Below are positions 5,667 to 61,000 of a DNA stretch of 64,000 nt, one piece after another. The stretch is taken from contig JALWPK010000042.1 in assembly GCA_026995045.1 (NCBI GenBank), positions 12,733 to 76,732 on the forward strand. The letters run 5' to 3'. The DNA comes from Gammaproteobacteria bacterium. GTDB lineage: Bacteria; Pseudomonadota; Gammaproteobacteria; SZUA-229. Position 1 is the stretch's first letter. Each line of letters begins with the position of its first letter. Under the pieces are notes generated by a model. The model was not told the DNA's origin and did not search any database. It was given only the letters and a program-made list of their open reading frames with translations. The position numbers were made by a program, and so were the translations under genes.

Positions 5667-5687
5667 CTTACTTACAATCCAACCATA

Positions 5688-17977: not shown

Positions 17978-18062
17978 GCGCACATAAGAGTCTAAGTCCC
18001 TGCGCTTGCGTAAACTAAGACGTTGACGATGTGAACTTTGTTATAGGATTTTATAGCAAATT

Positions 18063-26500: not shown

Positions 26501-28850
26501 GTTGTTGAAGAATCTGTACTATGCAACGGGTGTTGTAGCTGATTTCAATACAGGCACAGACGTCGTAGAGGTGCGCAAAGCCGAAACGCTGAAGCTGGAT
26601 ATACAGCAGCACAAGTACTATAGAGATCATATTATCTTTGCCGATGAACCTGAAGAGACTCCCACGGTTGATATATCGTACTTGGAACCGGCGCACGGTG
26701 TGAGGGAACTATACACGCGTACAGCAGACACATCCAAACTCCTAAGCATGAAGACCAATGCGAGTGTTTGGGACATCGCGTCGGTGGTGGACAACGCGCA
26801 GGAACTCGCAAAACGCCGGTCTGACGGCGACACGATTGTACTGTCTGTTGCCGAAGCGCTGGCGAGTCCGTATGAGGACATTACCTTTGACACTGCAAAG
26901 TTCAGCGCTGGCGTTGAACAACGTTACAGGGATGGTTTGGTCAAATATCCATCCGGTGCCGACGCCTTGCTGATATTCACAACTGACGCTGCGGCGTCTG
27001 CCGACGTCGCACGTCCAGTGTTTGACGGTACAGATACATTGAACGACATTGGACAGCTTAACTGGGGAAAAATAGCTACAATCCCAAACAGTTTTGATCT
27101 GACCTTCACAGCCTACGGCACAGCGGATGCCGCAACGTTAAACACCGCTAAGGGGCTGTTCGGGCTGCGCAACAACGAGTGGATACTGTTCGACGCGGCT
27201 GTGCATGTATCTGGCAACACATACACGTTGCAGAACGCACGTAGAGGCGTACACCACTCACACTACGCTAGAGATTTTAACATACGTTATGCTGACAATG
27301 ACAAAGACGACGGTGTCTGGCTAGTGCGCGCTGTTCCTGATACATACGCGCTACCGGCCAAACCAGCAGCCATCGACAACGCTATTGTTTTGCCACAACA
27401 TGCCATGTCTGCGCAAGTTCCGCTGCAAACACGCTTCTACAACAAAATTCCTGCACCGACCAATATTGTCGTTGGCGAGGATGTCATTAGTTGGACTTCG
27501 CAAAACATCATAGACGACAGGCAGCTTGGCACAGGTGAATATATTGTAGGGTTCTTCTGGGGCTATATGCGCGACGGTATGGATGCGTTGTATTTGCTCA
27601 ACACATTATCAAGGACAAACCCTGAATCTTACAACGATGTTCTATATAAAGGTGAGAACAGATTCCTACACGCGAAGTATGTCACCGGCACTGATATGTT
27701 GTTCCCAAAAGACTATAAGGCGAATCTGGTTGACAGTATCACCAAACACACGGTGACGCCGATTGACATACCTGATACATCAATACCCTTCCAGACAGAT
27801 AATGGATGGTGGTTCTACTCTGATACCGAGCAGGCCGTCGCAGCGGCGCTCACAGCCTTGAACCATCCTGCATACTGGAAAGGCTTTGTACGCGGCACCA
27901 GTCCCGCGCATCCGGCATTTTATGAGTGGATGAAGCGGCTGCTCGTCCCTTCATATAACGGCTGGCATTGGACATGGGACGGCGCTGGTGATGTTATTCA
28001 GGTAATGCCCGAGCTGCCCAAGCTGACTGGGCTTTATGACTACTATGGCGACGGCGCTAAGAATCCCGGAAAAGTTGTGTATCCGGCTGCGGATGTGGGA
28101 AAACTTGCTGAAACGTGGTTTCCAGCGTTTCCCGTTCCTTCCACAGTGTTCCCAATCCGTCACTTTCTAAGCCTGTTCTTGTATAAGCTCGCATCACAGC
28201 GTTTCCCGTTGGTAGATGTCGCACTCAACAGAACTGAGTATCACAATCCAAACACAACACTGTATAACGAGCCCGGCGGAATGCCTAGATACAGTAGCCC
28301 ATTCACTGAAAAACTTCATGTCGCGCGTATTCTGCTGGATCAATTCTATGGCGTACAGACACCTTCAGCAGCCGACAAAACACTTCTCAACGAGTACGGA
28401 CTGGGCGGACTATACACACTACAGACGCACGATGCCGCCAGTACTCACCTGAATGCGCTAGTAAACGAAGCACTGTATAAGGACACAGAGCATTATTTGG
28501 CGCTGCACAACGCTGAGAAAATCGGCATCATCATTGCTGAAGTACAGACTGACGGCACGCTCGGGCACTTTGAACTGCTGGAAGGTGTTGCGCCAGCAAA
28601 GAAGCATGAATGGTGTGTAACAGACAGGCTGAACAACTCAGCTAAGGTACATAAGAGCACAACATACGCGCTGATTGAGGAACTCGGCGTCGGGTGCTCC
28701 ATGTTCTCGATGACGCTGGTTGTGCCTAAATACACGCCACCTGTAAATGCGATGCGTGTGCGTAAGGCGACGACGTACGCAGCAATCGTCAGGGAGTCAA
28801 ACAGGCTGTTGAAGACAGGTACATATTGCGCGTTCGCGCCAAAGGCCTAG
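23547..28850 (+). CDS. Giant tail protein 3 (paralog-like; gpJ/GTA g15-type motif)
   Basis: 1767 aa with a TAATG overlap with the upstream gene. It contains GLFGLRNNEWILFDAAVHVSGNTYTLQNARRGVHHS. The N-terminal roughly 125 aa are Cys-containing and end in KPKPAKKKKKLKKSK. Confidence 0.6.
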   Translation: MAIDFSKKWTTTGIADIPNDGYDGSNSCIERAETACSGVASTEYNACVQARLRSFGCTPSASPEKRTAATQVQMSARRGTPLRDGFVPDEELSGVAETDVRDGVRYTYSLDKPKPAKKKKKLKKSKDGHKAHVLEDYRSIKSDAIDVSDVFSSDVVLSQQCNTAQFNAMYPEAVASKLGLSQIPLGYGPNCNPSKEQGEKEARICYHDAYMGCVVKFLEDQKAAAERALEVAETNHANRLDYEADKRLRARGAKGIAVSQPFHELAIPFHRVTSVEECMSALTYQGDDPVDWRQDTRSVTRRRDENDSDKQATDTEPQFCLDTAVVPKQNTVDIITDINPLAAQSGVAKYDQRLNVRRLIRSHVMEALGPAKGELTDCSCSKCLVVQNKSYDSSSTEGAQAALVTAALERKANTSPDDLIATSEAESVGVILPYVVGRIIIRGTVITVDEEQAAACGLAHPRFDCVVKLAANRVDKVVRILRLGADVTNDVAFELFYTADGHSAVRMFGVPKEWLKAEGTLDVVFDTYTAVELVPTVKLRSDIAVSTRSTVVRADMRRVYVNTTTNAVDVYSIVTGAKLETLNVIINAGDVWDVTPVGDVVIKRNGTGDVDLYIPATDTLKTFANVVNPATADFSYSLSGAVNLVKSKRYQYETLRGNPRAEFDTWIPLKAGEAYTSAYNIHSNHGSDTAKVISVPAHVIDADLADAQTYYKDVFPGGELRGGVSVDEYGSDVFILHNENSFSITVAEFAKNYTAANAPLIDTVAAYAVDYDFNSNLKTGMAAHSRTTYLTPQRFFTRDNGVGQVLFSPEYQKLVVNDGANWFIAEHRLSLFEAGLFNSANASVSMAQSYMKQINAPQPAARVTLSVTSDSRISMGREAVFQYIDTNGDMIEFDVANDTWRKVGVVNEARNITSQTYTTYDGGTVIYTTDDGAVNAVTPNSSAVFFDVAAGLVKMFSFLGIKANAVDSVPSFLTGFALIGDSTVELLKNLYYATGVVADFNTGTDVVEVRKAETLKLDIQQHKYYRDHIIFADEPEETPTVDISYLEPAHGVRELYTRTADTSKLLSMKTNASVWDIASVVDNAQELAKRRSDGDTIVLSVAEALASPYEDITFDTAKFSAGVEQRYRDGLVKYPSGADALLIFTTDAAASADVARPVFDGTDTLNDIGQLNWGKIATIPNSFDLTFTAYGTADAATLNTAKGLFGLRNNEWILFDAAVHVSGNTYTLQNARRGVHHSHYARDFNIRYADNDKDDGVWLVRAVPDTYALPAKPAAIDNAIVLPQHAMSAQVPLQTRFYNKIPAPTNIVVGEDVISWTSQNIIDDRQLGTGEYIVGFFWGYMRDGMDALYLLNTLSRTNPESYNDVLYKGENRFLHAKYVTGTDMLFPKDYKANLVDSITKHTVTPIDIPDTSIPFQTDNGWWFYSDTEQAVAAALTALNHPAYWKGFVRGTSPAHPAFYEWMKRLLVPSYNGWHWTWDGAGDVIQVMPELPKLTGLYDYYGDGAKNPGKVVYPAADVGKLAETWFPAFPVPSTVFPIRHFLSLFLYKLASQRFPLVDVALNRTEYHNPNTTLYNEPGGMPRYSSPFTEKLHVARILLDQFYGVQTPSAADKTLLNEYGLGGLYTLQTHDAASTHLNALVNEALYKDTEHYLALHNAEKIGIIIAEVQTDGTLGHFELLEGVAPAKKHEWCVTDRLNNSAKVHKSTTYALIEELGVGCSMFSMTLVVPKYTPPVNAMRVRKATTYAAIVRESNRLLKTGTYCAFAPKA

Positions 28851-30499
28851 TAGTGGATACTCAACGGCTTTGCGCCATAGGCGCGCCGTTTTGTATTATC
28901 CCTGACATATTGCGAAAGCGCGTCGGGGTAGTCGTCATATTTCCCATTTGGGAAGGCGACAATTTCGTTGACAATATCGGCGAGCCACGAAGCTTTTTTA
29001 GGGAATATAAGGGAGCCTGACTGAATGGCGGGCAATAGGTAACTTTCGACGTTGAACGCTTTTGAGCCCTTATTCTGGGCGCTCACAGGCTTTACAGGAC
29101 AGATGAATGCTTTGCTGTAGTTTTCGATTATCTGCGAACCCATGGCGGCGTCTTCGACAAGTATCACATGCGCACCGTGCGTTTTTGCCATTTTGCCTAT
29201 GATGCTTACGATCTCAAACAACGGCTTCTGAACAGCCGTTGCCTCAAGAACATAACTGGTTTTGTCTTTATAGCGCGCTACGGCGACAATCGCGGTTCTG
29301 TTCGATCCTGTTGTGCTTTTCTGAGCGGCGTCAACTGTGATTGTCACAGTTGCGTCGCCTTTTGGTAATTTGTCGTAGTATTTGAAATCACCGTGCTCGA
29401 CATAATCGCCGAGTTCGTCCATCGGTACGCCTAGATAAGTAGCACTCCACAGCGCGGGTGTCAGTGTTGTCTTGATGTTGATATAGTGTTGTGCGCCGTA
29501 GAACTCTTCCCACAGCCAATGTCCGGGTTTAACAAACTGGTGATCTTCAGAACCCTCAGCGCTGATGTTCACAATCTCATATGGCGACGGCATCGTGTCA
29601 GGGTGCTCTATAAGCATTTTTTCAACATACCCCATAGGGTCCTCTGACATCCAGCGTGTGCCGATCAACAGCACAACAGCTCCCGGCAATACACGCGGAA
29701 ATACGTCAGCAGTGAGCCACTGAATAGCGCGCCGCCGCTCTTTAGGCGACAAAGCACTCTCAGCCCCGCCAACAATGTCGTCAAGAACGATTAGATTGGC
29801 GCGTATCCCAGACGTGTTTGCGCCTACTGATCTTACTGTATAGCGGCCTCCGAAGCCATCTAGTGCCCAAAGATCAGATGATCTAAACGATGTGTCGATA
29901 CTTATATCTGGGAATATCGTCAAGTAATCTGCAGTCTTCAGCGTCTCCCTGTTCGGTATGGAGAACTCTCTACAGACAAAGTTCATTCCGTAGCCGCCAG
30001 CCAACACTTTGTGAGTTGGGTTACGGCCCATGTACCACTGAACAAAGCTCTTTGATGCGTATGAACTTTTTGCAGAACCCGGCGGCAGGCTTAACAGGAT
30101 GATCTTTGTCTTACGGCTTTCTAAGTCCTGCATCTTATTACACATATACCGGTGATGCTCCGCTGGCACTTCAGTCGGATTTATATACTCATGGTATGCT
30201 GTTATGTCGTGCTGCGCCATTGCCGCCAGCACTCTGAAGTACCGGTCTTCTTCACTCGAAAATGTCTGGAACAGATTTATGTTCGGGTGGTTATTCAGGA
30301 ATTGTTGTTCTATTGGTTTGAGATCATGCGTGGTTCTTCCTTCCTGTATTTGTGTATACAAGTCGTGCAGGAACATGACCTTGGCGCGCTCTTTCGCACG
30401 CTCAGCCCATGTGTCGAACCACAATCCCTGTGCTTTTAACTCATCTATAGATGTGAGGCGATTAGTAACCGCCTCATCGAGTAGGAGCCTTGGGGCCAT
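28847..30499 (-). CDS. terL: Terminase large subunit
   Basis: 550 aa. Walker A-like LSLPPGSAKSSYAS, Walker B-like ANLIVLDDIVGG, LLIGTRW, and a C-terminal nuclease-like half with conserved acidic residues (TVDAAQK..., VLVEDAAMG). Confidence 0.85.
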   Translation of the reverse strand: MAPRLLLDEAVTNRLTSIDELKAQGLWFDTWAERAKERAKVMFLHDLYTQIQEGRTTHDLKPIEQQFLNNHPNINLFQTFSSEEDRYFRVLAAMAQHDITAYHEYINPTEVPAEHHRYMCNKMQDLESRKTKIILLSLPPGSAKSSYASKSFVQWYMGRNPTHKVLAGGYGMNFVCREFSIPNRETLKTADYLTIFPDISIDTSFRSSDLWALDGFGGRYTVRSVGANTSGIRANLIVLDDIVGGAESALSPKERRRAIQWLTADVFPRVLPGAVVLLIGTRWMSEDPMGYVEKMLIEHPDTMPSPYEIVNISAEGSEDHQFVKPGHWLWEEFYGAQHYINIKTTLTPALWSATYLGVPMDELGDYVEHGDFKYYDKLPKGDATVTITVDAAQKSTTGSNRTAIVAVARYKDKTSYVLEATAVQKPLFEIVSIIGKMAKTHGAHVILVEDAAMGSQIIENYSKAFICPVKPVSAQNKGSKAFNVESYLLPAIQSGSLIFPKKASWLADIVNEIVAFPNGKYDDYPDALSQYVRDNTKRRAYGAKPLSIHY

Positions 30500-30728
30500 A
30501 ATTTGTTATAACTCCTATAACAAAGTTCACATTGTCGACATTTCAGTTTACGCAAGCGCAGGGACCGAAACTCTTATGTGCGTTTAAGCTCTCCTCTGAA
30601 CCTTGGGCGAGCGTGTTTAGATTATACGCTGCGTTTAAGTCTCTGTCAAGAGAAATTCCACAGCTCTTACAATTGAATTGGCGATGGCTAAGAGTCAGCT
30701 TGTCGTCGATTTGGCAACTGATGTATCG
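30500..30728 (-). repeat. Copy C of the TnpB-3'-end/omega-RNA-like cassette
   Basis: 229 bp on the minus strand, ending at the terminase ATG (30499). The antisense track ORF 30532..30756 shares the peptide ASVFRLYAAFKSLSREIPQLLQLNWRWLRVSLSS with ORF 41071..41436, which exposes the repeat. Confidence 0.9.
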
Positions 30729-30731
30729 AGA
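30543..30731 (-). pseudogene. tnpB: tnpB 3'-terminal remnant (62 codons plus stop, no start codon)
   Basis: The minus strand translates as SRYISCQIDDKLTLSHRQFNCKSCGISLDRDLNAAYNLNTLAQGSEESLNAHKSFGPCACVN*, preceded by an in-frame TGA. Confidence 0.8.
30621..30649 (-). promoter_or_regulatory. Perfect consensus sigma70 promoter TTGACA-N17-TATAAT inside copy C
   Basis: The minus strand reads tctcTTGACAgagacttaaacgcagcgTATAATctaaacacgctcgcc. The spacer was counted as 17 nt. The predicted TSS is about 115 nt upstream of the terminase ATG. Confidence 0.6.
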
Positions 30732-30841
30732 TCAAGAACAGCGCACTGTTGCATAGCGCGGGATGTCTCATTTAAGAAGCTGAAGTCCTGCCTAAGCCTT
30801 ATTGTTCATAACTTAAGCGTATTCATATAGCCTTTTATAGC

Positions 30842-33670
30842 TTATTTGTCAACCTTTTCCTCTGGGATGTATATATAACCATCCTCGATAACTATGCCCG
30901 CGTCTTCTTTGAACTTCGTCATGCGCGTAATCGTCGTAACGTCGTTGGTTACGTGCTTACCGCGTTTTGCCAGATGTGCGCCAGCGATTGTGCGTGTATT
31001 GATGACGTACTTGCCATCAATCTTCGACACTGTGTCTTTTGACACAATTGTATCCAGCGCGCCTGTCGCGCCCACAGCGACAGCGCTGTCACCGGCTAGG
31101 AAGCCGTCGAGAAAATAATCCACCGTGTCCTTTGGCGCTGTGATACGTCTGCGCCGTTCATTATTCTCGAAGGGCCTTGACAGGATTTGCCAATTCATAC
31201 CGTGATCTTCTGGGCGGAAATTGCGAAGGAAGTACTTCATCTTTCCGATGAATACAGGGTCCTGTACGCGCGCGATTTGCTCTGCCCAAAACGTCGGTGC
31301 ATTGCTGTATTTGCGATTGACGACGAAGTAGGATAAGCGCCTGTCATGATCATCAAGAACAACGACATTGTGGTTGTTGGAGGCCATGACTAAGTGGTGA
31401 AAACTGTCTATCTCAACAGAGTCCACACCCTTAGGCTCAATGCGTATCTTGTCTGACGTGATGAAGTACTTCAACTGGCCATCGTCTTTGAAGTTCAGTG
31501 TCTCCGACACCTCATCGTAAAAGACCATATGTTTACCGGCGAGGAGGGCATTGAAGTTGGAGAAAATCTCACGTTTAGCAGACGCAGCCAGTCCGAAGTC
31601 ACCGTGGGGCTCAACAAACATTGCCTTTATTAGCACACTCTTACCTGCGCCTTGGATACCTTCAAAGAACATACACGTCGGCAACTTCTTGCTTGTGAAT
31701 TGATGCGTATGGGCACACCACGCCAGCATATAGTTGAAGGCGTCTTCATCATTGCACGCAAGCACTTCTTTAAACAAGGCGAGTTCTTTGTCATAGAACT
31801 CATTCATGTCGCAGGGGATGCTTTTTATGTTGGCTTCGGGGTCATATGTGTTGAAGGTCACAAGATCAGGCATACTCCCGAACTTATGCTTCGGCGTACA
31901 AGTGATGGCTTCTATCTCAGGATATATGTACGGCAGCCTCAGCCAGTATGACACTACGTTTACGTCATTTTCTATGCGCGCGTCGAACACTCGCATACCC
32001 CTATGGAGTTCGACTAACGCCTCTTCATTATATACGCCGACGCGGGGCGCGATTGTGTTCATAGTGCGGGCCATGTCAACGTATAGCACACCAGTCAACG
32101 CCTGTTTCGCGACAACGGATTTATTGACGCGGCGCATGTTTTTATCAAGCGCTTTGAATGTGTCGATGTACGCTTTCGCATGTTCCGTACTGGTGAAGGC
32201 ATACGCCTGATCCACGAATTCTTCCACACGCACACCTGTGAAGACATCGGCAATCGTGTCGTAGTCCAACCCGTACACATCCATTAGCTTTGTGATTGGT
32301 TTACTGTAATCAGTGAGAAAATGCTGCGTAGTGATTATCCTACGCACAGCAGACGGGAGGCTACGACACTGTAGGCGATAAGCCTTCAACATGTCAGTAC
32401 GCGCAACAACGCCGTGTGTAAGCGCATCAGTGAGGGGTACAGCGGTAAACGCTAACGCATAGAGTTTATCGCTATCCGACAAGTCTCTGTCTTTGCACAG
32501 CTCTTGAAATGTCGGGATATCCTCACAGTCAAACAGAGCTTTCGACCACTTGGCGTCTGACAGTACTTTTTGTGTAAATACGTCGGCATCGTACTCACTG
32601 GCGACGGCCGGGTCAACATACTCGATTGGTTTGAACACAGCGGTGTCGTCAGGTACAAAGTTTTCCTTGACCTGTACTTCACTGAGCGGAAAGTCTAGAA
32701 TGTTCGGCGGTGCAGCGGCGCTCAGCGCGTCGAAGGACAACGTGCCATCAGTCAGTAGTCTGTGAATGAATGTAGGTGTATCACGATCGTTGCAATGTTC
32801 ATGTAAACAGCTTATCGTCGCAAAGCAATATTCATCGTTTGGCGGCGCGGCGAAACATGCTTTGTCACCGTCTCGCTGCGTGCTGTGCTCATGTTCAAAC
32901 GGGCATCTTATGTGATACCCGCCGGAATCCCTGTCGCTTATAATGATTTCAGGGCAGTTGTCGTTGATGACTTGTGCGATGTCAACAGTGCTGTTGATGT
33001 CGAACCACTCCCTAACATCCACAGTCTGGTTGTCGTGCGTAATCCACAGCGCATCGCCGCTGGCCGTGCGTCTGTTGTTTTGATGGTTTGGCGCTATGCC
33101 TGACGCCTCAACATTCTGTATGCTTAAATCCGGGACAAGCGCTTCAGCATCAATGAACGTGCTGGTGTGCTGCACTGTAGAGTTCGCAGGCTTACTTGCG
33201 ACGAAGTACATACGCTCAAGCTGATTGCTCGTTATATCATAATTTACGAAGCCTAAGCTAGCCGCTATGTGCGCGTGGAAATCCGCATACCAGCGCTGTT
33301 TTGGCTCATTGACTTTTTCAGCAAAAGGGATGACTACGCGGTATTTCGGCGTCTTGCCGTCTGACAGATGCGAATATGTAGTGTAGACATAGCTTGTTAG
33401 GTTGCCTTCACGCAGCGCTGACACAGCCACGTCAAATGGCGTAGCATTACTGGCGTCGAAGTCATACACGAGTCCAGCTACACTAATGACATTACGCTTC
33501 TTGCGGCGATTGTCTCTGAACTCAGCCATGCTGAAGCACGGCGTGCGCTCTTTCGACGGAACTTCAAGGTGACTTGTCGCCTTGAATAGCTCGGCAAACG
33601 TCTTCGTAGCGCGCCACTGATCCACAGAATACATGCTGTCGCATGTAGTTATCTTTGTAGCAATCGGCAC
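30842..33670 (-). CDS. Bifunctional primase-polymerase / SF3-type (D5/P4-like) helicase
   Basis: 942 aa. The N-terminal AEP-like region has LVYDFD and YRVVIPF. A Cys/His cluster follows (HIRCPFEHEH...CLHEHC). The C-terminal NTPase has Walker A FEGIQGAGKSV and Walker B MVFYDEV. The GTG start overlaps the sigma gene stop. Confidence 0.8.
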   Translation of the reverse strand: MPIATKITTCDSMYSVDQWRATKTFAELFKATSHLEVPSKERTPCFSMAEFRDNRRKKRNVISVAGLVYDFDASNATPFDVAVSALREGNLTSYVYTTYSHLSDGKTPKYRVVIPFAEKVNEPKQRWYADFHAHIAASLGFVNYDITSNQLERMYFVASKPANSTVQHTSTFIDAEALVPDLSIQNVEASGIAPNHQNNRRTASGDALWITHDNQTVDVREWFDINSTVDIAQVINDNCPEIIISDRDSGGYHIRCPFEHEHSTQRDGDKACFAAPPNDEYCFATISCLHEHCNDRDTPTFIHRLLTDGTLSFDALSAAAPPNILDFPLSEVQVKENFVPDDTAVFKPIEYVDPAVASEYDADVFTQKVLSDAKWSKALFDCEDIPTFQELCKDRDLSDSDKLYALAFTAVPLTDALTHGVVARTDMLKAYRLQCRSLPSAVRRIITTQHFLTDYSKPITKLMDVYGLDYDTIADVFTGVRVEEFVDQAYAFTSTEHAKAYIDTFKALDKNMRRVNKSVVAKQALTGVLYVDMARTMNTIAPRVGVYNEEALVELHRGMRVFDARIENDVNVVSYWLRLPYIYPEIEAITCTPKHKFGSMPDLVTFNTYDPEANIKSIPCDMNEFYDKELALFKEVLACNDEDAFNYMLAWCAHTHQFTSKKLPTCMFFEGIQGAGKSVLIKAMFVEPHGDFGLAASAKREIFSNFNALLAGKHMVFYDEVSETLNFKDDGQLKYFITSDKIRIEPKGVDSVEIDSFHHLVMASNNHNVVVLDDHDRRLSYFVVNRKYSNAPTFWAEQIARVQDPVFIGKMKYFLRNFRPEDHGMNWQILSRPFENNERRRRITAPKDTVDYFLDGFLAGDSAVAVGATGALDTIVSKDTVSKIDGKYVINTRTIAGAHLAKRGKHVTNDVTTITRMTKFKEDAGIVIEDGYIYIPEEKVDK

Positions 33671-34245
33671 TATAACAACTCTTTAATCAAATCCAATATC
33701 ATCCCATACTTAGCGCGTATGGCGTCTCTTGACATGTTCAGCCTATTCGAAATCTCTTCAAAAGTCAAGCCTCTTATGCTACGCATTATGAAGATGTCCA
33801 CATACTCATCGGGTAACGCCTCAAGTTTACGACTCAACAACGCTTGACTTTCGCGCATCAGTGTGTTAGACTCTGGGTCTAATTGCGTTGCACGGGCATT
33901 ACGCGCTTCCTCAATTGGGACAGTATCTACTGCACGGCGGCTTTTTGCGCATGTGTTTAGCATTCTCCCCCTAATGTGCGCGACGGCAAACGTGGTGAAA
34001 CTTGCTTGTTTAACGTTGTCCTCAGCGTACCGTCTTGCGGCGTTTAGCAGGCCGATCAAACCTTCGGCGTACAGGTCATCAGCAGATACCGCCTCATTCA
34101 CTGACGCAGACAAACGTGTGCTATAGTACAATAGGTACGGGTGCATGATCTGCACAATCTCAGAGAATAGTGCGTCTTGCTCAGTGTTTTGAAACTTAGC
34201 AATCAGTGCGCTGAGTTTCACATTCTTCGCTGTTGTTGAACTCAT
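33670..34245 (-). CDS. RNA polymerase sigma factor (sigma-70 family, ECF/group 4-like size)
   Basis: 191 aa. Region 2-like: DLYAEGLIGLLNAARRY...FTTFAVAHIRGRMLN. Region 4-like HTH: LPDEYVDIFIMRSIRGLTFEEISNRLNMSRDAIRAKY. Confidence 0.8.
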   Translation of the reverse strand: MSSTTAKNVKLSALIAKFQNTEQDALFSEIVQIMHPYLLYYSTRLSASVNEAVSADDLYAEGLIGLLNAARRYAEDNVKQASFTTFAVAHIRGRMLNTCAKSRRAVDTVPIEEARNARATQLDPESNTLMRESQALLSRKLEALPDEYVDIFIMRSIRGLTFEEISNRLNMSRDAIRAKYGMILDLIKELL

Positions 34246-36197: not shown

Positions 36198-36757
36198 AGA
36201 TTGCTCTCCTGCGCTACATTAGATAGACGTGTTGCGAGTTCGCAAACAACCGCATTTTGCTTCTTCAACGATGGTGACAGGCGTGGCACATATTGCCATG
36301 TGTTAATGTCGAATGCGACGACGCCGCTTCCGGTGCTTGATATAACCTTTGATGCAGCCACAACGGATGCTGCTGGATCATGGCACTCTCGCATAGCTGC
36401 GCTTGCGGCAACCGCACCGGAGCCCTCACATAGATAACCGCTGTTACGCTTAAGCACAATCGGATACGGTGTCACACTCGCACCCTCGCAAACCCACACT
36501 ACAGATGGGTCACTACGAAGACGCCACACAATTGTGGATTGATCACCGTCGGCGACGGTGCGCGGCACATGTTCCAATGGGACGTTGGCTAGTATAGCAT
36601 AGACTATAGGATGTGATGCCGACAATGAACCTGAAAAGGCACACACAACTTCGTCGTTTGAAAATATCTTCAAAAACGGCGTGCCAAGGCGCAGGTCACC
36701 GGCGTTGACCTGTGTATCGGCGGCAATTGTGTTGTAGTCCATTGCAATTGTCGTCAT
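36194..36757 (-). CDS. HslV/proteasome-like Ntn-hydrolase peptidase (putative)
   Basis: 187 aa beginning MTTIA (Thr directly after Met, as in HslV TTIV...). It has a Lys around position 30 (FLKIF) and EGSGAVAASAAM, comparable to the HslV GSGGxxAxAAA segment. Confidence 0.55.
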   Translation of the reverse strand: MTTIAMDYNTIAADTQVNAGDLRLGTPFLKIFSNDEVVCAFSGSLSASHPIVYAILANVPLEHVPRTVADGDQSTIVWRLRSDPSVVWVCEGASVTPYPIVLKRNSGYLCEGSGAVAASAAMRECHDPAASVVAASKVISSTGSGVVAFDINTWQYVPRLSPSLKKQNAVVCELATRLSNVAQESNL

Positions 36758-37446
36758 TGGTTGTCTCCGATGATGGCTACGTTGAACAGATTAGCGGATT
36801 TCGCCGGGTCTTCGGCGCGTGTTATCGGCCTTCCCACAACAATATACGTAGCTCCGGCGCTTGCGGCTGATGCGGGAGTGGCGATGCGTTTTTGATCACC
36901 CGGCGCGTCTCCGGGGAAACGTATGCCGGGCGTCACCATAGCGAAATCGCCAGACACATGCGGTTTAATGAGGGGCAACTCATTCGCTGACAACACAGCG
37001 CCATCAAAGCCCAAAGTGTCGGCTAAAGTGGTGCGCAGCCGAGCTAGTTTGGAAACGCTCACGGCCATGCCATGCTCCAATAACAGCTCACTTGCGCCTA
37101 CATGCGTTAGCACGGACACTGCTAGCAACTTGAGGCGGGATTTACCCCGCCCTCGCACGGCGGCTCGCAGTATCTCTGATCCCGCACTGTGCACTGTGAG
37201 AAAGTCAACGCCTAAAAGCGCCGCGCGCGCCACCGCTTTTTCCACAGTGTTAGGGATGTCATGTAGTTTCGCATCCAAGAACACAGATTTACCACGGCGC
37301 TTCAGCTCCTTTATCAGCGCTACGCCGTCGCCAAACATCAGTTCAGGTCCAACCTTATACACACCGACGGCTTCACCTATCTTGTCAACAACGGTAAGCG
37401 CGTCGCGGCAACTGGCAAAGTCTAGTGCAACAATCAACGCTGTCAT
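36754..37446 (-). CDS. pyrF: Orotidine 5'-phosphate decarboxylase
   Basis: 230 aa. LIVALDF at the N-terminus plus the OMP decarboxylase signature VFLDAKLHDIPNTVEKA, and a C-terminal GATYIVVGRPI. Confidence 0.85.
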   Translation of the reverse strand: MTALIVALDFASCRDALTVVDKIGEAVGVYKVGPELMFGDGVALIKELKRRGKSVFLDAKLHDIPNTVEKAVARAALLGVDFLTVHSAGSEILRAAVRGRGKSRLKLLAVSVLTHVGASELLLEHGMAVSVSKLARLRTTLADTLGFDGAVLSANELPLIKPHVSGDFAMVTPGIRFPGDAPGDQKRIATPASAASAGATYIVVGRPITRAEDPAKSANLFNVAIIGDNQ

Positions 37447-37961
37447 CGTGGCCCGCCTTTGCTACACCAATCGCTTTTCTTGCCGCCGTCATATGGTCTA
37501 GCAAAACCAGCAGTCTTCAGCAGCTCGGCCAAGTCGGCGTAGTTCGCAAAAAACTGTTGATATTTGATATCAGCGACAACCCGGCCTGCGTACTTTCCGA
37601 GTTTAGGATTTACAACAATTATTGGATCACCGGGTTTTATCAAATCCCGAACATATTGCTTTGCTTTGACGCCTAGCACCCTTTCTTCGTCACACTTCGC
37701 AAAACGGCGTGAGCTTTCAGGTGTATCGACACCCGCCAATCTCACTGATGTTTTGATCAATACACGCGGCCAAACCTCAACGTTGGCTACAATTGTATCA
37801 CCATCGACAACGCGCACGACCTGTGCCATATATGCGGAGTCAAACACTCTAGGCACGCGCCGTGTAGCCGCGTGTGTCGCCATCACGTATAGTGTCACAG
37901 AAATAAGAGTGACGACTATAGCAAGTACAAACCGTTCAAAACTACGCAAATCTAACTCCAC
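37443..37961 (-). CDS. Staphylococcal-nuclease (SNase/thermonuclease) family nuclease with an N-terminal TM/signal segment
   Basis: 172 aa. VVRVVDGDTIVANVE, VRLAGVDTPES and YAGRVVADI match SNase-fold motifs. The N-terminal segment FVLAIVVTLISVTLYVMA is hydrophobic. Confidence 0.75.
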   Translation of the reverse strand: MELDLRSFERFVLAIVVTLISVTLYVMATHAATRRVPRVFDSAYMAQVVRVVDGDTIVANVEVWPRVLIKTSVRLAGVDTPESSRRFAKCDEERVLGVKAKQYVRDLIKPGDPIIVVNPKLGKYAGRVVADIKYQQFFANYADLAELLKTAGFARPYDGGKKSDWCSKGGPR

Positions 37962-38553
37962 TGTTTTGACTGTCGATAATATCGGAAATTGTTAACGCCT
38001 CTTTACGTAAGTCATCCAAAGAACCGTTGTTGTATACTGTGTGATCTGCGACGATGCCATCCATCTCTGTCTCAGAGGGGTGCTCGTCCGCCGCACCGTC
38101 TAGCTTAGGCACATCTCTAACAACACGGATAATGTATGCCCCGGCATCACTGAGGGCTTCCGCCTCATTGACATAGCGCACATCGCTGACCACTACATAG
38201 TCACATAGTGACTTGTTAATTCGGCGCAATAAGGACTTTACCCATATGTCTTTGCCTAGAACGTCACGGCCGAACTCTGTTCCGAACAACTGCATACAGC
38301 GCCTAAGCGTAACTTTGTCAGAGAATGGTACGAAGTCCATCTCCTTGCGCCATCTGTCCTCCATAAATGCTTCGTATTTGTTAGCCGTGCTCGGCTCGCC
38401 TACAAGTGTGGCCATGAGATGCGCCATCGTAGTCTTGATCGGTGTAGCCAGCTTGAACTTAAAATATCCACGCTCAGTTGACAGTACATCAGCAAAGGCA
38501 TCCTTACCGCTTCCGCGCTTTCCTACAATTGCAATTACCACTTTACCGTTCAC
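37942..38553 (-). CDS. P-loop (deoxy)nucleoside monophosphate kinase-like protein
   Basis: 203 aa. Walker A IAIVGKRGSGKDAFA at the N-terminus; overall like phage dNMP kinases. It sits within a nucleotide-metabolism context. Confidence 0.55.
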   Translation of the reverse strand: MNGKVVIAIVGKRGSGKDAFADVLSTERGYFKFKLATPIKTTMAHLMATLVGEPSTANKYEAFMEDRWRKEMDFVPFSDKVTLRRCMQLFGTEFGRDVLGKDIWVKSLLRRINKSLCDYVVVSDVRYVNEAEALSDAGAYIIRVVRDVPKLDGAADEHPSETEMDGIVADHTVYNNGSLDDLRKEALTISDIIDSQNSGVRFA

Positions 38554-38592: not shown

Positions 38593-40965
38593 TTAATGCG
38601 TTTCCAGCCAACTCATACCTCGCTTAACATCAGCAGCGACAGGGCAACGCATACCCAATTCACTGCCCGCTTCAACAGCAGATTTGCTAAGCACATCTGC
38701 AAGAACATCGGCTATGTCAGGCGCTACGCTACACTGTATCTCATCGTGGATATGTGCCAACATAGTCCAATAGCCCTGCTCAATACCCATTGGACACCCC
38801 AATTCGCGCATATTGTCAAATACTTTTACTGCCCAGAGTTTCGCCACCGCAGCAGCCTGTCCCTGAAGCTTCGTGTTGAGTGCGCCGTACATTGACCTTA
38901 TGCGGATACGTCTGCCATCAAGACCAATGATATAACCTCGCTCAGCCTCAGCACGCACGGCGGCGATTGCTGGCGCTAGTCCGGGTACGCTTCTGAGCAG
39001 CTTAGCGCGAATGTCCGCGCCGATTTGTCGCTTTGATGCGTCCGGCGCAGTTGGTTCTGCCGTGTGGCCTAGTTTCCAATCTCCAGCGCCGTAAAGCAGG
39101 CCAAAAAGACACCGCTTCACAATTGCTTTTGAGCGTACACCGGTGCGCTCAAGATTAACACTGTGCACATCGTTGTTAAGCACGATGTCAATAAGCTCGC
39201 CGTCGTCGAATGTTGAGCATACATCCGCCAAGCACCTGACCTCGATATTCTTCAAATCCGCGCCGAGCATGACATGGCCTTCATGAGGGATAAAACAATC
39301 TCTGCACTCAGCGCCAAACCGCCCACGCTTGCCTAGCACAGCAACGGTTCCATCGGGTAACTGGCGGTACTCATGAGGCTCCAGAGGGCCTTTCTTGGTG
39401 CGCGCAACGCCATTCTCGACGAAGCCTGTTTCGAGACTTGGTACTTGGCCAATGTTGAAATTTGAGTGACTGCACCGCCCTGTGACTGTCCCGCCTGCGT
39501 TAGTTCGGCAATGCGCGATGCCTTTGTCATCAACGTGTTTTATCCAAGCCTGTCTCCCTGTTGATATCTGACCTAGAAGTTTTGCGTGGAACAGATAGTC
39601 CGCGATAGACTTTATCATGTCCATGCCTACAGCGTCGTCGATGTCGATGCTGTCAAGGGTGTCAACAGTGACTTGCGGCGTGCCCTTGTCTGTGAATTCT
39701 GTTGGCTGCCAATCGTACAGTGTTGTCAGCCTGTTGACGATTTGTGGGCGACTTGCAGGATTAAATGTCACACGCTTCAGCTTACAGGACTTAGCACCTT
39801 CCGTCGTATTGAAGAAGTAGACCCTGTTGCCGTCTTTATCAAGCTTGAACAGCTTCTTATAATTTACTGTGCGTTTGCTAACATACACAGCACCCCACCA
39901 ACGTCTAGACCCGTCTTCACCGTGTTCGGGGTTGTGCGCTTCATACTTGTCAACCTGACACTTTGTGTCTGCCGCAATGAAGCCATGTTTTCTGAAGGCG
40001 TTGAGTATGATTTGTTTTTCGGGAATTGTCCTGTCTTGCCAGAACAACAGCGCGCGGCTTTTATATTTCCAAAAACTTCTCTCGCGGATCACCGGTACGC
40101 TGACGCCGGCGCTCGTAGTGGCGCGCAACATTGCGGCATGATCTGCGCCGACTGGTGGTTTGCGCATACCATCCAAGAATATATCGAAGTCAAGCTTGTT
40201 GTCCTCATCAAAGGCAGGCCACGCCTCCTTCTTTTTCGCCGCTGTGTACCATGTTCCGAAATGATTGACCAATTTTTCGTGGAGGCTATTAACGGTTGTT
40301 GACACGGCACTAATCAATGCACGCAATCTGTCAAGATGCACTGGGAACCCGTCACGCTGCATCTGTGCAAAGACTTCATGCACGCGCTGTTCGGCTTGAA
40401 TAGCTACGTCATCCTGAGCAGTATTATGTTCTATGATATGGGAAAACAGCTTTGCAGACACGCGCACATCCTGCTCGCAGTAGTCTGACATGGCTTGGTT
40501 CCAGACGCCCCATGTGTGCTCAATCACGTCAACGCCGAGCTTTTCCGCTTCGGCTGCGCGCTCTTTTGCATAGTCCCCCTTCAACATACCGAAGCGATAG
40601 CCCCATGCTTCGAGGGATTGTGAGCCTGTTAATCTGCGCGGTAAGCCTGAGGCGATGTGTTTGCGGTAATCATCGTCGGAAACAGTGCTGAACAACACCT
40701 GACAATAAACCAACGTGTCGTATACAGTGCCGCTGAACTTGAAATCCTTGAAAACTTTGGCGATTGCCGGTAAGTCAAACGCGATGATGTTGTGACCAAC
40801 AAGTGCATCAGCGTTTGACAACAGCTCTACAGCCTTTGGTACATCTTCCTTGTCAAACCGCACAACTTCATCACTGCCTACACGCATGACGTGTATGCAG
40901 TGGATTTTTGTCATCGATGGCAACAGGCCATCAGTCTCGATGTCGAATATATAGCTGTGGGCCAT
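38593..40965 (-). CDS. polA: DNA polymerase I family A with 3'-5' exonuclease domain (no 5'-3' exonuclease domain)
   Basis: 790 aa. Exo I: YIFDIETDGL. Exo II: GHNIIAFDLPAI. Pol motif A: LGADLKNIEVRCLA. Motif B: RSKAIVKRCLFGLLYGAG. Motif C: AHIHDEIQ. Confidence 0.9.
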   Translation of the reverse strand: MAHSYIFDIETDGLLPSMTKIHCIHVMRVGSDEVVRFDKEDVPKAVELLSNADALVGHNIIAFDLPAIAKVFKDFKFSGTVYDTLVYCQVLFSTVSDDDYRKHIASGLPRRLTGSQSLEAWGYRFGMLKGDYAKERAAEAEKLGVDVIEHTWGVWNQAMSDYCEQDVRVSAKLFSHIIEHNTAQDDVAIQAEQRVHEVFAQMQRDGFPVHLDRLRALISAVSTTVNSLHEKLVNHFGTWYTAAKKKEAWPAFDEDNKLDFDIFLDGMRKPPVGADHAAMLRATTSAGVSVPVIRERSFWKYKSRALLFWQDRTIPEKQIILNAFRKHGFIAADTKCQVDKYEAHNPEHGEDGSRRWWGAVYVSKRTVNYKKLFKLDKDGNRVYFFNTTEGAKSCKLKRVTFNPASRPQIVNRLTTLYDWQPTEFTDKGTPQVTVDTLDSIDIDDAVGMDMIKSIADYLFHAKLLGQISTGRQAWIKHVDDKGIAHCRTNAGGTVTGRCSHSNFNIGQVPSLETGFVENGVARTKKGPLEPHEYRQLPDGTVAVLGKRGRFGAECRDCFIPHEGHVMLGADLKNIEVRCLADVCSTFDDGELIDIVLNNDVHSVNLERTGVRSKAIVKRCLFGLLYGAGDWKLGHTAEPTAPDASKRQIGADIRAKLLRSVPGLAPAIAAVRAEAERGYIIGLDGRRIRIRSMYGALNTKLQGQAAAVAKLWAVKVFDNMRELGCPMGIEQGYWTMLAHIHDEIQCSVAPDIADVLADVLSKSAVEAGSELGMRCPVAADVKRGMSWLETH

Positions 40966-41009
40966 AATTAATTATAAATACTTATAACAAAGTTCACATC
41001 GTCAACGTC

Positions 41010-41222
41010 TTAGTTTACGCAAGCGCAGGGACTTAGACTCTTATGTGCGTTTAAGCTCTCTTCTGAACCTTTGGCGAGCGTGTTTAGATTATACGCTGCG
41101 TTTAAGTCTCTGTCAAGAGAAATTCCACAGCTATTACAGTTGAATTGGCGATGGCTAAGAGTCAGCTTGTCGTCGATGGTGCCACAGTTCGAACAAGTCT
41201 TCGACGACGGGAAAAACCGTGT
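41010..41222 (-). pseudogene. tnpB: tnpB 3'-terminal remnant (70 codons plus stop, no start codon)
   Basis: The minus strand translates as TRFFPSSKTCSNCGTIDDKLTLSHRQFNCNSCGISLDRDLNAAYNLNTLAKGSEESLNAHKSLSPCACVN*. FPSSKxCSxCG ... CxxCG ... DRDxNAAxN is the hallmark TnpB/OrfB Zn-ribbon plus RuvC-III C-terminus. An in-frame TAA lies immediately upstream. Confidence 0.85.
41088..41116 (-). promoter_or_regulatory. Perfect consensus sigma70 promoter TTGACA-N17-TATAAT inside copy D
   Basis: The minus strand reads tctcTTGACAgagacttaaacgcagcgTATAATctaaacacgctcgcc, the same sequence as in copy C. Confidence 0.6.
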
Positions 41223-41250
41223 TTACCTTAGGCGCGGACTCATCATGTTG

Positions 41251-42213
41251 CTATTGATTTGCCATATACTGCGTTTCTTCGTCGCTCATAAGTTGGCCGC
41301 GCTGTGCGATGGATACCGTTCTCTCAGCGGACCATACCGTCAGGCATGTCAGTGTTATCGACACACCGATAGTCTTTATACACGCAATGATGTGCGGCAC
41401 GAGTGCTGCGCGTACATCAGCCGGAGCATCCTGTAGTGAGAATATTTCACCAGTGCATCGGCTGAGCTCGGTCGTTAGCGCCGTGGTGATTGCCGTCAAT
41501 GCTGTTTCGATGTACTTGTGTGCGTCGCCATTTGGGTCAGTGTCGTGGATGTCAGCGATAAGGCTTTTATTCACCGATGCGTTTGTCAGCGCGGGATACA
41601 GTTTACATACAGCCTCAACTACAGTTTGGTCATTTTCGGAGGCGCTACGCAAATCTTGCATCCAGTCCGAAACAGATGAAACCTCGTTGAAGTTTATTGC
41701 CAATTCAGCCAGTACTTCTGACACAGTTGGCATTTCACCATTGCTGTTGTTCTTCGTTTCGGCAAGGTTCATCATAAAACGCTTAAGCCAGTTGTCAGTG
41801 ATCAAGCCGCTATTACATACATCACATATTAGCCGCCTGAATTCATTAACACGCTCATCTGATGGTGTTGACTCGACGTCGCAAGGTTCATGAGACTTCA
41901 GAACCTCCAATACTGACTCTATTTCGTTGCGCGTACTGTGGCGGTCTGCACTTTCTTCTAGCTTACGCTTTATAAACGCACGCCCAGCGGGGGTTAGGCT
42001 GTCGTCACAGAACAAGGCCCCGCTGAGCGCTGTCAGCGACGTCGTTGATGAACCCTTCGCAGCATTATCAAAACCTCTAAACACTCTGGCCGCTGTCGCT
42101 ACCAATGTCAGGATGTGAATATACAGTCGCATCAGCTCCAATAATTTATCGGAGTCAGTGCTGTCGCTGTTGTGATTGCTGCCAAAAGCGTTTTTAAGTA
42201 TGCTCGAAATCAT
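41251..42213 (-). CDS. Hypothetical protein
   Basis: 320-aa ORF with no motifs recognised, between the lysozyme gene and cassette copy D. Confidence 0.6.
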   Translation of the reverse strand: MISSILKNAFGSNHNSDSTDSDKLLELMRLYIHILTLVATAARVFRGFDNAAKGSSTTSLTALSGALFCDDSLTPAGRAFIKRKLEESADRHSTRNEIESVLEVLKSHEPCDVESTPSDERVNEFRRLICDVCNSGLITDNWLKRFMMNLAETKNNSNGEMPTVSEVLAELAINFNEVSSVSDWMQDLRSASENDQTVVEAVCKLYPALTNASVNKSLIADIHDTDPNGDAHKYIETALTAITTALTTELSRCTGEIFSLQDAPADVRAALVPHIIACIKTIGVSITLTCLTVWSAERTVSIAQRGQLMSDEETQYMANQ

Positions 42214-42219
42214 TGGCGA

Positions 42220-42927
42220 TTAGCCTTCTCTGATATCTTGGTATCTGCGGTAAATGATAAACATAGCAGCAACCACAACTCCGATGCCTATACCGGCCAA
42301 GAAGCGTGGGTCAGTTGCTACGTCGAGCACAATACCAGCAGCGCCAGCAAAAGCAAGTAATACTTGCGCTACAGCCGCCCTAAATGTTGTACTATGCTTA
42401 ATGAGTTGCTTAGCGGGTGACTTATTTACAGGTTGCGGATTATCTGATTTTGGCAGTTTTTCCTTCTTTGTCGCCGTGTTTACCTTAGGTGTGGACTCGT
42501 CATCCATGAATAGAGCTGTCTCAGCGCGCCGCCGCCGTACCAAGCCTTTATACACCCTTCCACCGGCGTGCACCCAGCGGATGAACTGTTCAGCAGCACC
42601 TTCATAATCACCACGGTTCAGCTTGCGGCGAAGCGTGGACTTGCGGAAAGCGCCGCAGCCTAGGTTGTATGAGAAGCTGACAAGAGCATCAAACTGTCCC
42701 TGCGTCAGTGGAACAGTGGTGTATTTATTTACACATTTCTCATGCTTGGCAAGCTCAGCGCGCAGCATTTCTTCAGCCTGTTTGCGTGTGATACGCATAC
42801 CGCGCTTTACGCCTTCGGTGCAGCCCCATCCGATTGTCCAAACGCCGACGACATCTTTATACGCCTTAAGGTATAAGCCTTCAAAACTTTTTATTAGGGC
42901 TAGGCCCTTATCACTGATCCGTTGCAT
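42220..42927 (-). CDS. Lysozyme (T4-type/GH24-like) with a C-terminal membrane-spanning region
   Basis: The track ORF extends to 43089. I prefer the ATG at 42927 (MQRISDKGLALIKSFEGLYLKAYKDVVGVWTIGWG...), because the upstream extension runs through a terminator hairpin and the previous gene. The EG..L.AY.D..G..TIG.G motif is typical of phage lysozymes. The C-terminal segment AAVAQVLLAFAGAAGIVLDV...GIGIGVVVAAMFIIY is hydrophobic. Confidence 0.8.
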   Translation of the reverse strand: MQRISDKGLALIKSFEGLYLKAYKDVVGVWTIGWGCTEGVKRGMRITRKQAEEMLRAELAKHEKCVNKYTTVPLTQGQFDALVSFSYNLGCGAFRKSTLRRKLNRGDYEGAAEQFIRWVHAGGRVYKGLVRRRRAETALFMDDESTPKVNTATKKEKLPKSDNPQPVNKSPAKQLIKHSTTFRAAVAQVLLAFAGAAGIVLDVATDPRFLAGIGIGVVVAAMFIIYRRYQDIREG

Positions 42928-53497: not shown

Positions 53498-54103
53498 TTA
53501 TTGCCGAACTTCAATAATCGGAATACGTTGAGCTGTACCCAACTGGAATGCTTCAAGTGTAATGTCCAGATGATCAGTGTCAAAACGCGCCGGTATGTCG
53601 AACTCCACTGTACCAACGACAATTGCAGCGTTAAGTGTTGGCGCTGTTGTGAATGTGAACACGCCAGTATCGTAGTTTACTATGAAGTCAGTGTTCTCAA
53701 CAGCCGCCACACCGCCAACAGTGACGCCTGTTAGTGTGCCTTGCACTGGATGTGTTATTGTCCTGTCAATCGTAACCGCGTTGACTGTATATGTTTTAAT
53801 CAACTGGAAAGTTGTTAGCGCACCATCGCCTGTGCCGATGTTCTGGTTTGTGATCTTGTAATCTGACCAGTCCTTGAAGCGAAACACATTGGCTCTACCG
53901 CGTACTTTTCGGAAAAACGCAATCAGCGCCGCTAAATCCGCTTCATCTGTGATGCCCGTTGAGGCGTCAGCCTTTATTCGCGGATTTGCCCACACCGAAT
54001 TGCGCTGTTCAAAGCCTGACGCAGCCGTAAATACTTGGGTTCTGAACTCAGGGCCTACAGTTGACCCATATGCAATTCCTGTCGGAAACGTATCGAGCGG
54101 CAT
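53498..54103 (-). CDS. Distal tail protein, GTA g12-like (DUF2460 family)
   Basis: 201 aa. FPTGIAYGSTVGPEFRTQVFTAASGFEQRNSVWANPR...LIAFFRKVRGRANVFRFKDWSDY closely follows the DUF2460 consensus as I remember it. Confidence 0.7.
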   Translation of the reverse strand: MPLDTFPTGIAYGSTVGPEFRTQVFTAASGFEQRNSVWANPRIKADASTGITDEADLAALIAFFRKVRGRANVFRFKDWSDYKITNQNIGTGDGALTTFQLIKTYTVNAVTIDRTITHPVQGTLTGVTVGGVAAVENTDFIVNYDTGVFTFTTAPTLNAAIVVGTVEFDIPARFDTDHLDITLEAFQLGTAQRIPIIEVRQ

Positions 54104-54109
54104 TTTCTT

Positions 54110-54397
54110 CTACGGTTTGAACAGATTAACTTGAATAGCTGTAACAGCAATGCCGATTATAGCAGCAATAACGGTGCGTGTCAACCACGTAGCGTTTTTG
54201 TCCAGCCTTTCTAGATCATTAAGGCACTGCCGAATGCTTTCCTTTCGTACATAATCTCTGGTTAATGCTTGGTCAAGCCGCTCAAGCCTGTCCAAAAGTG
54301 CGTCGAGTTTAACACTCAAGCGTATCACAGTATTTGCGATGTCTCGCAAGTCGCTGTCGTTGCTGCTGCTGTTATCCATTATTAGTCCGATGTTCAA
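54110..54397 (-). CDS. Small coiled-coil protein with a C-terminal TM helix
   Basis: 95 aa. The C-terminal segment WLTRTVIAAIIGIAVTAIQVNLF is hydrophobic. ATGA overlap with mazG. Confidence 0.5.
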   Translation of the reverse strand: MNIGLIMDNSSSNDSDLRDIANTVIRLSVKLDALLDRLERLDQALTRDYVRKESIRQCLNDLERLDKNATWLTRTVIAAIIGIAVTAIQVNLFKP

Positions 54398-60435: not shown

Positions 60436-60554
60436 TGGCGTTGAAAAACTAGGCTGGCGTTGAAAAATTAGGCTGGTGTTGAAAAATTAGGCTGGTGTTG
60501 AAAAATTAGGCTGGTGTTGAAAAATTAGGCTGGTGTTGAAAAATTAGGCTGGTG
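60436..60554. repeat. Iteron-like array: 6 full plus 1 partial head-to-tail copies of a 19-bp unit (TGGTGTTGAAAAATTAGGC)
   Basis: Units at 60436, 60455, 60474, 60493, 60512 and 60531, plus a partial unit at 60550-60554. The first two units are variants (tggcgttgaaaaactaggc, tggcgttgaaaaattaggc). The array fills the gap between the stop at 60566 and the helicase ATG at 60435. Confidence 0.9.
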
Positions 60555-60565
60555 CGCGCGTGGCA

Positions 60566-61000
60566 TCACATGTCGAATGCTAACTCAGCGTCAGTTAGCT
60601 CAAACGCGGCGGACACGTCGCCCGCTGTAGCCATATATTCCTCAAATGCAGTTTCGTTGCCGGGTGCCACGCGCCAATCGGTGTGATGTGGATGCACAAC
60701 CATACGTTGTATTTGATCATCAAGTCCGCTGAGTTCATCGCTTGTGAAACCGTCGAACGGCGTAAAACACGACGCAGTTATCCGCCGGTGTATCCATCTG
60801 AGGAGCAGATTCCCGTCGTCGCCATCTAGTGCTACAGCGAAAACGCCGGTGAGGGGCGGCGTCACGGAATGGCTGAGTTTTGTTGCCGCTGGACTTGCCA
60901 TAAGGAGATTGGCGCGCGCATCGTTGAGCTGTTCCTCAACTTGACGGCGGCGGGTTTTTATGTAGTTCTGCACTACAAGCGCAGCGTTGTCGATGGTCAT
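60566..61000 (-). CDS. Hypothetical acidic protein
   Basis: The track ORF extends to 61042. The ATG at 61000 gives an ATGA overlap with the stop of the upstream gene (MTIDNAALVV...). Confidence 0.5.
   Translation of the reverse strand: MTIDNAALVVQNYIKTRRRQVEEQLNDARANLLMASPAATKLSHSVTPPLTGVFAVALDGDDGNLLLRWIHRRITASCFTPFDGFTSDELSGLDDQIQRMVVHPHHTDWRVAPGNETAFEEYMATAGDVSAAFELTDAELAFDM

Follow-up and report, generated by a model that had tools for sequence, protein, structure and literature searches.

The stretch of DNA analysed in this study, hereafter the window (64,000 nucleotides), is phage DNA. An exact protein look-up placed it at bases 7034–71033 of an ENA metagenome scaffold of 75,781 bp, namely, JOHN19-1_SAMN10217895_METAG-scaffold_255. 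Genes for the portal, the major head protein, the tail tube and the tape-measure protein are carried by the plus strand of the window, and the minus strand encodes a sigma factor, nucleotide-metabolism proteins, a lysozyme, the terminase large subunit, a primase/helicase and PolA. A class II ribonucleotide reductase gene is situated just before the window start. The region downstream of polA (36754–38553, minus strand) holds genes for a dNMP kinase (DNMK), an SNase-like nuclease and an OMP-decarboxylase-family protein, the last of which is unusual in a phage. About seven head-to-tail 19-nt units (TGGYGTTGAAAAATTAGGC) occupy 60417–60568, directly upstream of a helicase-like gene (59227–60435, minus strand), and resemble the iterons of a replication origin; three tandem 18-nt repeats at 6571–6642 lie within the ORF 6370–6675 and encode the repeat D-K/A-A-P-A-K. 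No close relative of the phage was found in the collections searched. INPHARED phages and PLSDB plasmids gave no nucleotide matches to the phage or to the repeat described below, the exact core pattern of this repeat was not found in IMG/VR, and an Rfam search returned no matches; tRNAs were likewise not detected. The best matches of polA reached 36% identity among known phages and 38% in IMG/VR, and a scan of genome contigs produced matches of 33–41% identity only.

Repeat finding and alignment revealed four copies of a repeat in the window, designated A, B, C and D (Table 1), in agreement with the copy label given to D in the original prediction, which had been made from the letters of this DNA. 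All four are non-coding, lie in the same orientation as their flanking genes and fill the intergenic gap. A fifth copy, E, is located on the same scaffold and contains an intact tnpB of 385 amino acids (L085 4122–5279, minus strand), ending approximately 0.8 kb before window base 1. An 89-nt RNA core, a terminal hairpin and an AATTATGRCC end are common to the copies. In an independent assembly from another run (Logan SRR13853571, L264), the sequence terminates within copy C and has the private variants of C beside the terminase gene; thus, the copies are real and do not represent an assembly artefact.

Table 1. Positions of the repeat copies, their parts and the neighbouring genes in the window
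Feature	Position	Strand	Basis or remark
Copy D, non-coding 5'-truncated derivative of the tnpB/omega-RNA element	40958–41218	−	blastn against the intact element
TnpB C-terminal pseudo-ORF of D (Zn ribbon and RuvC-III)	41010–41222	−	70 codons and stop
Filler at the 5' junction of D (30 nt)	41217–41246	−	27/30 identical to 42474–42503
Sigma-70 consensus promoter of D, TTGACA-17-TATAAT	41088–41116	−	12/12 consensus positions
Omega-RNA scaffold core of D	40992–41080	−	covariance model R1, 44.6 bits, E 2.1e-8
Terminal AU-rich hairpin and AATTATGGCC(C) right-end motif of D	40959–40991	−	kept in all five copies
Predicted guide of D, polA codons 3–9, ACAGCTATATATTCGACATC	40939–40958	−	inferred from the right-end boundary, ± a few nt
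polA	38593–40965	−	
ORF preceding copy D	41251–42213	−	
Copy C, upstream of the terminase large subunit gene	30493–30833	−	blastn segments
Parts of copy C	core 30525–30613; perfect promoter 30621–30649; ATG 30499–30497	−	
Terminase large subunit	28847–30499	−	
Primase/helicase	30842–33670	−	
Copy B, upstream of the 382-aa ORF at 18063	17834–18069	+	blastn and inverted repeat I2
Parts of copy B	core 17948–18036; weakened promoter 17913–17941; ATG 18063	+	
Copy A, flanked by the major head protein gene and the 151-aa ORF	~5673–5812	+	blastn
Parts of copy A	core 5686–5774, then divergent hairpin and AATTATGGCC; ATG 5806	+	

Copy D corresponds to the last 261 nt of the intact element, with 95.8% identity (blastn). 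The minus-strand TnpB C-terminus that the original prediction had read here was recovered by a profile search, in which the peptide matched PF07282 (Cas12f1-like TNB domain) significantly (E = 7.5e-14, 52.1 bits, cutoff 26); a protein search with the same 70-aa peptide returned short fragments only. Read from 41010–41225 on the minus strand, the pseudo-ORF is TRFFPSSKTCSNCGTIDDKLTLSHRQFNCNSCGISLDRDLNAAYNLNTLAKGSEESLNAHKSLSPCACVN, and the peptide differs from the C-terminus of the intact TnpB by two amino acids. It is an incomplete TnpB ORF of 70 codons that lacks a start codon and, as had been predicted, contains no Met and is closed by a stop directly upstream. The spacings given in the prediction were also correct, namely, 28 nt to the preceding gene and 44 nt from the TnpB stop (41012–41010) to the polA ATG (40965–40963). 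Two other details required revision. The end of the repeat had been set at 40966, and the repeat continues through the polA ATG and codon 2 to approximately 40959. A length of about 257 nt had been regarded as a meaningful unit, and the copies span from about 140 to about 340 nt. The statement that the element cannot encode a protein is valid for D itself and does not extend to the scaffold, which carries the intact tnpB just outside the window. The filler at the 5' junction of D is a direct repeat of a stretch located 1257 nt upstream, within the lysozyme-like gene; the 30 nt look like filler DNA or the template-switch footprint of the event that truncated D.

The remaining copies were shortened in other ways. 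Copy C is internally deleted and consists of 33 nt of the tnpB-proximal 5' end (30801–30833), an internal piece of 75 nt (30723–30797) and 219 nt of the 3' end. Copy B keeps the last 219 nt of E and has the same internal deletion junction as C (inverted repeat I2), indicating that B derives from a C-like deleted element. Copy A aligns with E over 104 nt at 87.5% identity and begins only 13 nt before the start of the RNA model described below, having thereby been trimmed almost exactly to the core. In element positions, the 5' breakpoints are 1121 for D, 1162 for B and C, and 1246 for A. The left end of the element is absent from D, B and A, and C alone retains its 33 nt; no left end was recognisable in the copies save approximately 25 nt upstream of the tnpB ATG, which is all that E and C have in common there. 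The differing breakpoints, the filler at the D junction and the mere 4% divergence of D from the intact copy are consistent with neutral decay, in which the copies would be recent relics that lost their 5' parts by deletion and kept their 3' ends since deletion of a start codon is lethal.

This explanation was weighed against the RNA core. The 3' regions of TnpB homologs with 38–48% protein identity match the repeat in the blocks GACACGCTC...TTAAACGCACNNAAGAG, a variable stem and GTTGACGGYGTGAAN. Ten other TnpB loci, none of which is on this scaffold, supplied the 3' regions from which alone covariance model R1 was built. The homologs P0068 and P0015 represent the same locus in several samples and provide no independent flanks for locating the ends or the TAM. 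In the ten-region alignment, the family consensus structure shows compensatory changes in 15 of its 21 pairs. When the window and two flanking loci (approximately 90 kb) were searched with R1, exactly E, D, C, B and A were retrieved, all matching model positions 1–90 with 41–45 bits and E-values of about 1e-7 to 1e-8 (C, 42.3 bits, E 7e-8; B, 41.8 bits; A, 41.0 bits, E 1.4e-7), and the next match scored 9.6 bits. A model derived from other loci fits D over its full length, so that this segment is compatible with the omega-RNA and right end of the family. The core of D spans the tnpB stop; hence, the RNA gene overlaps the 3' end of tnpB and passes the stop. Together with the peptide match, the model supports the original view that D retains an omega-RNA gene and is not a random IS relic.

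The five 89-nt cores differ by 23 substitutions in all. Three pairs changed on both sides and are still paired: A-U replaced G-C in the first stem of copy A, and in the second stem of copy C, U-A replaced C-G and C-G took the place of an A·A mismatch. Under random placement of the same substitutions, at least three such double compensations are expected with P of about 4e-4, a value to be read with the caveat that the phage sequences themselves had contributed to the definition of part of the inner stem. Three further single changes yield G·U wobbles, and one change, in copy D, breaks a pair. These compensatory changes may date from functional ancestors of the copies that had not yet been truncated. 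Fold energies were no better than those of shuffled sequences (Z-scores near 0) and are uninformative by themselves. In copy B, the former coding part has diverged from E by about 12%, compared with 3–4% in the core, and a 1-nt deletion occurs just before the core. In copy A, the core was kept and the sequence between the core and the ATG was replaced. Lethality of start-codon loss would guard the last 10–40 nt of a copy but not a core of about 90 nt, which all four copies match from end to end; the uneven divergence within B also speaks against decay, and the compensatory changes argue for constraint. Neutral decay of recent relics is therefore considered improbable as the explanation of the copies.

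Downstream of the core, alignments between independent elements of the family stop at TTATGAGCGG, and the right end of the family is defined by this terminus, which is mostly TTATGAGCGG with the variants TTATGAACGG, TTAGGAGCGG and TTATTAGCGG. Past GTGAAN, the relatives have a hairpin whose sequence varies and covaries, and then the conserved terminus. The phage copies have the same layout, with an AU-rich hairpin followed by AATTATGRCC as the equivalent of TTATGAGCGG. The hairpin is a perfect 9-bp stem in C, is present as compensated variants in E and D, reads TTTGTTATA-GGATTT-TATAGCAAA in B and is a different hairpin in A. The terminal hairpin with the right-end motif belongs to the five copies only and occurs nowhere else in the window, and the motif TTATARNNAATTATGRCC is restricted to the four copies in the window. 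The end of the scaffold RNA had initially been set at ...GATGTGAAC (GTGAAC), with the next 35 nt read as near-identical guides or as a phage promoter motif; this boundary was rejected because the relatives continue with the hairpin and the conserved terminus.

The ATG within this right end thus serves five genes as start codon, namely, polA (of which the motif in D contains the ATG and codon 2), the terminase large subunit gene, the 382-aa and 151-aa ORFs of the structural region, and a 193-aa ORF that adjoins copy E. The N-terminus of PolA (MAHSYIFDIETDG) offers no alternative start. RCC follows the ATG in all five genes at the copies, compared with 2 of the 48 other genes in the window. The phage terminus ATGRCC lacks the terminal GG of the family, and the junction between scaffold and guide is for this reason uncertain by a few nucleotides; the shared sequence of the copies ends within ATGR..CCY, leaving an uncertainty of about 3 nt in the boundary. 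In each gene, the predicted guide would start around codon 3 (ACAGCTATATATTCGA for D), and all guides are unique in the window. A viral contig in IMG/VR (IMGVR_UViG_3300022700_000085, L136) encodes a TnpB of 41% identity and has an RNA core ending in GATGTGAAC (2446–2570), followed by a short palindrome and, about 30 nt on, by an ATG-initiated ORF. Judging from this contig, gene starts that abut a right end may recur in phages.

The protein of copy E is a full ORF, unlike D, with the domains HTH_OrfB_IS605, OrfB_IS605 and TNB, and aligns with ISDra2 TnpB (8H1J/8EXA) over residues 9–377 (E 1e-53). The positions of the RuvC D/E/D residues were read from an alignment to 9YYG, an AI-designed, ISDra2-like nuclease, and not from the ISDra2 alignment; D188, E272 and D354 of E fall in the motifs GVDLG, EDL and DRDxNAA, respectively. 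The RuvC triad is apparently complete, and E does not appear to be a nuclease-dead TldR because its three residues sit in the RuvC motifs. Five relatives share the RNA and the right end over the whole length (L175, L272, L274, L177 and L281), and all have a TnpA with MerR-HTH and Resolvase domains upstream of tnpB (in L274, Resolvase E 3e-21 and MerR 6e-11). This is the IS607 architecture, and the nearest relatives are accordingly IS607-type. GG closes their left flanks and CGG their right ends, in keeping with the GG core dinucleotide described for IS607 (PMC10690162). The phage copies have AG at the left junction, ATGRCC at the right end and no TnpA. Among the precomputed Pfam matches of the called genes between scaffold positions 962 and ~72.5 kb (~71.5 kb), no Y1 or serine transposase was present, nor any match to PF01797 (Y1/HUH TnpA). 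With no TnpA on the scaffold as read and no recognisable left end beyond the ~25 nt of E and C, the copies cannot move in the canonical way. The sequence before the tnpB ATG (L085 5280–5305; window 30801–30833) reads ..AAGTTATGAAC and is similar to the right-end terminus ..AATTATGACC and to the stretch before the tnpA ATG in the IS607-type relatives (..ATTATGGAA); from this likeness, TTATG-type motifs mark both ends and three kinds of start codon. The best reading of copy D is that of a protein-less derivative of a TnpB/omega-RNA mobile element whose nearest relatives are IS607-type and whose nuclease is ISDra2-TnpB-like.

In D and C, a perfect sigma-70 promoter occupies the former L-D-R...A-Y-N (DRD..AAYN) codons of tnpB, with its −10 element ending 7–8 nt before the core, and E carries the same TTGACA-17-TATAAT by sequence identity in the alignment. 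The promoter of B is weakened (TAGACC-17-TATAAT), and no promoter of this kind was found in A. Perfect TTGACA-N17-TATAAT sites number 3 in the window against 0.02 expected. The third lies outside the copies, at 54156–54184 on the minus strand, just upstream of the ORF 53498–54103 (minus strand). The phage also encodes a sigma-70-family factor (Sigma70_r2 and r4; 33670–34245, minus strand), and phage-specific promoters may consequently exist that are invisible to a sigma-70 scan. Copies D, B and A and the sequences that follow them yielded no terminator-like sites. The only candidate, near C (30742–30760), lies in the internal tnpB piece, upstream of both promoter and core, and a role as intrinsic terminator was ruled out. 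As no terminator follows the predicted promoters, the transcripts would run into the downstream gene.

The main alternative is that the 3' ends persist as cis-regulatory sequences that provide the adjacent, mostly essential genes with a strong promoter, a 5' leader and a start codon, with the scaffold as a passenger that no longer acts as a guide. Such co-option would account for the perfect promoters of C and D, from which terminase and polA would be reached without an intervening terminator, for the presence of the first two codons of five genes within the repeat, and for the absence of another start in polA. It is less easily reconciled with copy A, which has no promoter, has had its leader by the ATG replaced and yet keeps the full core, or with the structure-preserving double substitutions in the core stems and the maintenance of an intact, apparently catalytic TnpB in the same genome. 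Co-option explains C and D well and A poorly. As the sole role of the copies it is rather unlikely, and co-option and a guide role may both hold.

We favour the interpretation that the copies represent orphan omega-RNA genes whose products the phage TnpB uses in trans (probability of roughly 0.6), a reading in which the guide function is inferred. The RNAs would be transcribed from the internal promoter or by read-through, and the phage TnpB would bind them in trans. Binding of TnpB to these scaffolds might instead serve post-transcriptional control, with the protein processing or occluding the 5' leaders of polA, terminase and the other genes and thereby tuning their expression. Scaffold, hairpin and AUG are contiguous on the transcript, the would-be guide coincides with the translation initiation region, and a conflict between omega-RNA maturation and the use of the host transcript has been documented for IStrons (PMC10690162). 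The retention of a nuclease-competent RuvC triad would be left unexplained by such control, and we regard it as very improbable.

If the orphan omega-RNAs do act as guides for the phage TnpB, the guides would be the first codons of the adjacent essential genes and could direct cleavage of insertion-free alleles, for example, those of co-infecting relatives. Cleavage would take place at alleles in which a TAM, and not the right end, precedes the target, and homologous repair from the occupied genome would copy the module in. The outcome would be a transposase-independent, 'non-restorative' homing accompanied by exclusion of competitors. The promoter and start codon of the right end would keep the interrupted gene expressed, making the insertions tolerable. 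In mixed infections, insertion-free alleles of a competitor would be cut at several essential loci at once and thus be converted or excluded. The full proposal, a virulent-type phage with transposase-free, multi-locus, RNA-guided homing from one TnpB and five modules that have their own promoter and are fused to gene starts, is offered tentatively, as a possibility that we would not yet expect to hold in its entirety.

The TnpB–omega-RNA pair is viewed as a means by which a transposon is maintained at its donor site. To our knowledge, transposase-free spread of TnpB has been shown for plasmids only. The scaffold studied here unites the loss of the transposase and left ends with the retention of a nuclease and five guide-RNA modules placed at the starts of essential genes. 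If the modules are active, they would provide RNA-guided homing or marker exclusion between phages, an RNA-programmed counterpart of T4 Seg/Mob. A right end that ends in ATG and carries a consensus promoter would also constitute a second route to phenotypic silence besides IStron splicing. If the modules are inactive, they are still a clear case of IS ends co-opted as portable promoter/start-codon cassettes in a phage. One protein, five scaffolds and five predicted guides are available as reagents for testing.

Phage-encoded TnpB proteins have been described before, as have orphan omega-RNAs of bacteria. The coexistence of one tnpB and four orphan modules scattered over a viral genome, the donation of a start codon to essential genes by a right end, and the embedding of a consensus promoter in tnpB codons appear to be new here. 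A scan of IMG/VR with the family pattern gave 17 stretches, none of them multi-copy, which is weak evidence given the strictness of the pattern. The proposed mechanism has precedents in the omega-RNAs of PATEs, in phage homing endonucleases located at conserved genes, and in the TnpA-independent and TnpB-dependent spread described on plasmids (PMC13565253). PATEs encode omega-RNAs that are used in trans (Meers et al. 2023, PMC10055086) and resemble the phage copies in having no protein-coding capacity, in keeping the right end and the omega-RNA, and in depending on a TnpB elsewhere in the genome. However, PATEs reside in bacterial chromosomes and have both of their transposon ends, whereas the present copies reside in a phage genome, A, B and D are without a left end, and each copy abuts a gene start to which it donates the ATG.

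IS607 elements and IStrons (Zedaveinyte et al., PMC10690162) are the closest in omega-RNA and right end, as seen in the five relatives named above, and the phage copies seem, like IStrons, to be built for phenotypic silence. They differ in that the scaffold, as read, is without TnpA and the terminal GG is not conserved; IStrons are silenced by RNA splicing, whereas the phage copies would be silenced by a right-end promoter and start codon. The likeness to ISDra2 lies in the protein alignment (E 1e-53) and in an RNA that overlaps the 3' end of tnpB and continues past the stop. ISDra2 is, however, of the IS605 type with a Y1 TnpA and pairs one element with one guide, whereas the phage has one nuclease gene and five RNA modules. 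TldRs, the nuclease-dead TnpB-derived repressors, some of which are encoded by prophages, likewise involve a TnpB-family protein in a phage and guides untied from active transposition; unlike them, the phage protein has an apparently intact RuvC triad, and its predicted guides are derived from flanking sequence and are not reprogrammed to a promoter. The free-standing homing endonucleases of T-even phages (Seg and Mob), which are associated with marker exclusion, are selfish nucleases at conserved essential phage genes, and the predicted targets of the present phage are similarly conserved 5' coding sequences. In contrast to Seg and Mob, targeting by this phage, for which homing is a proposal of the present analysis, would be RNA-guided and would address several loci with one protein.
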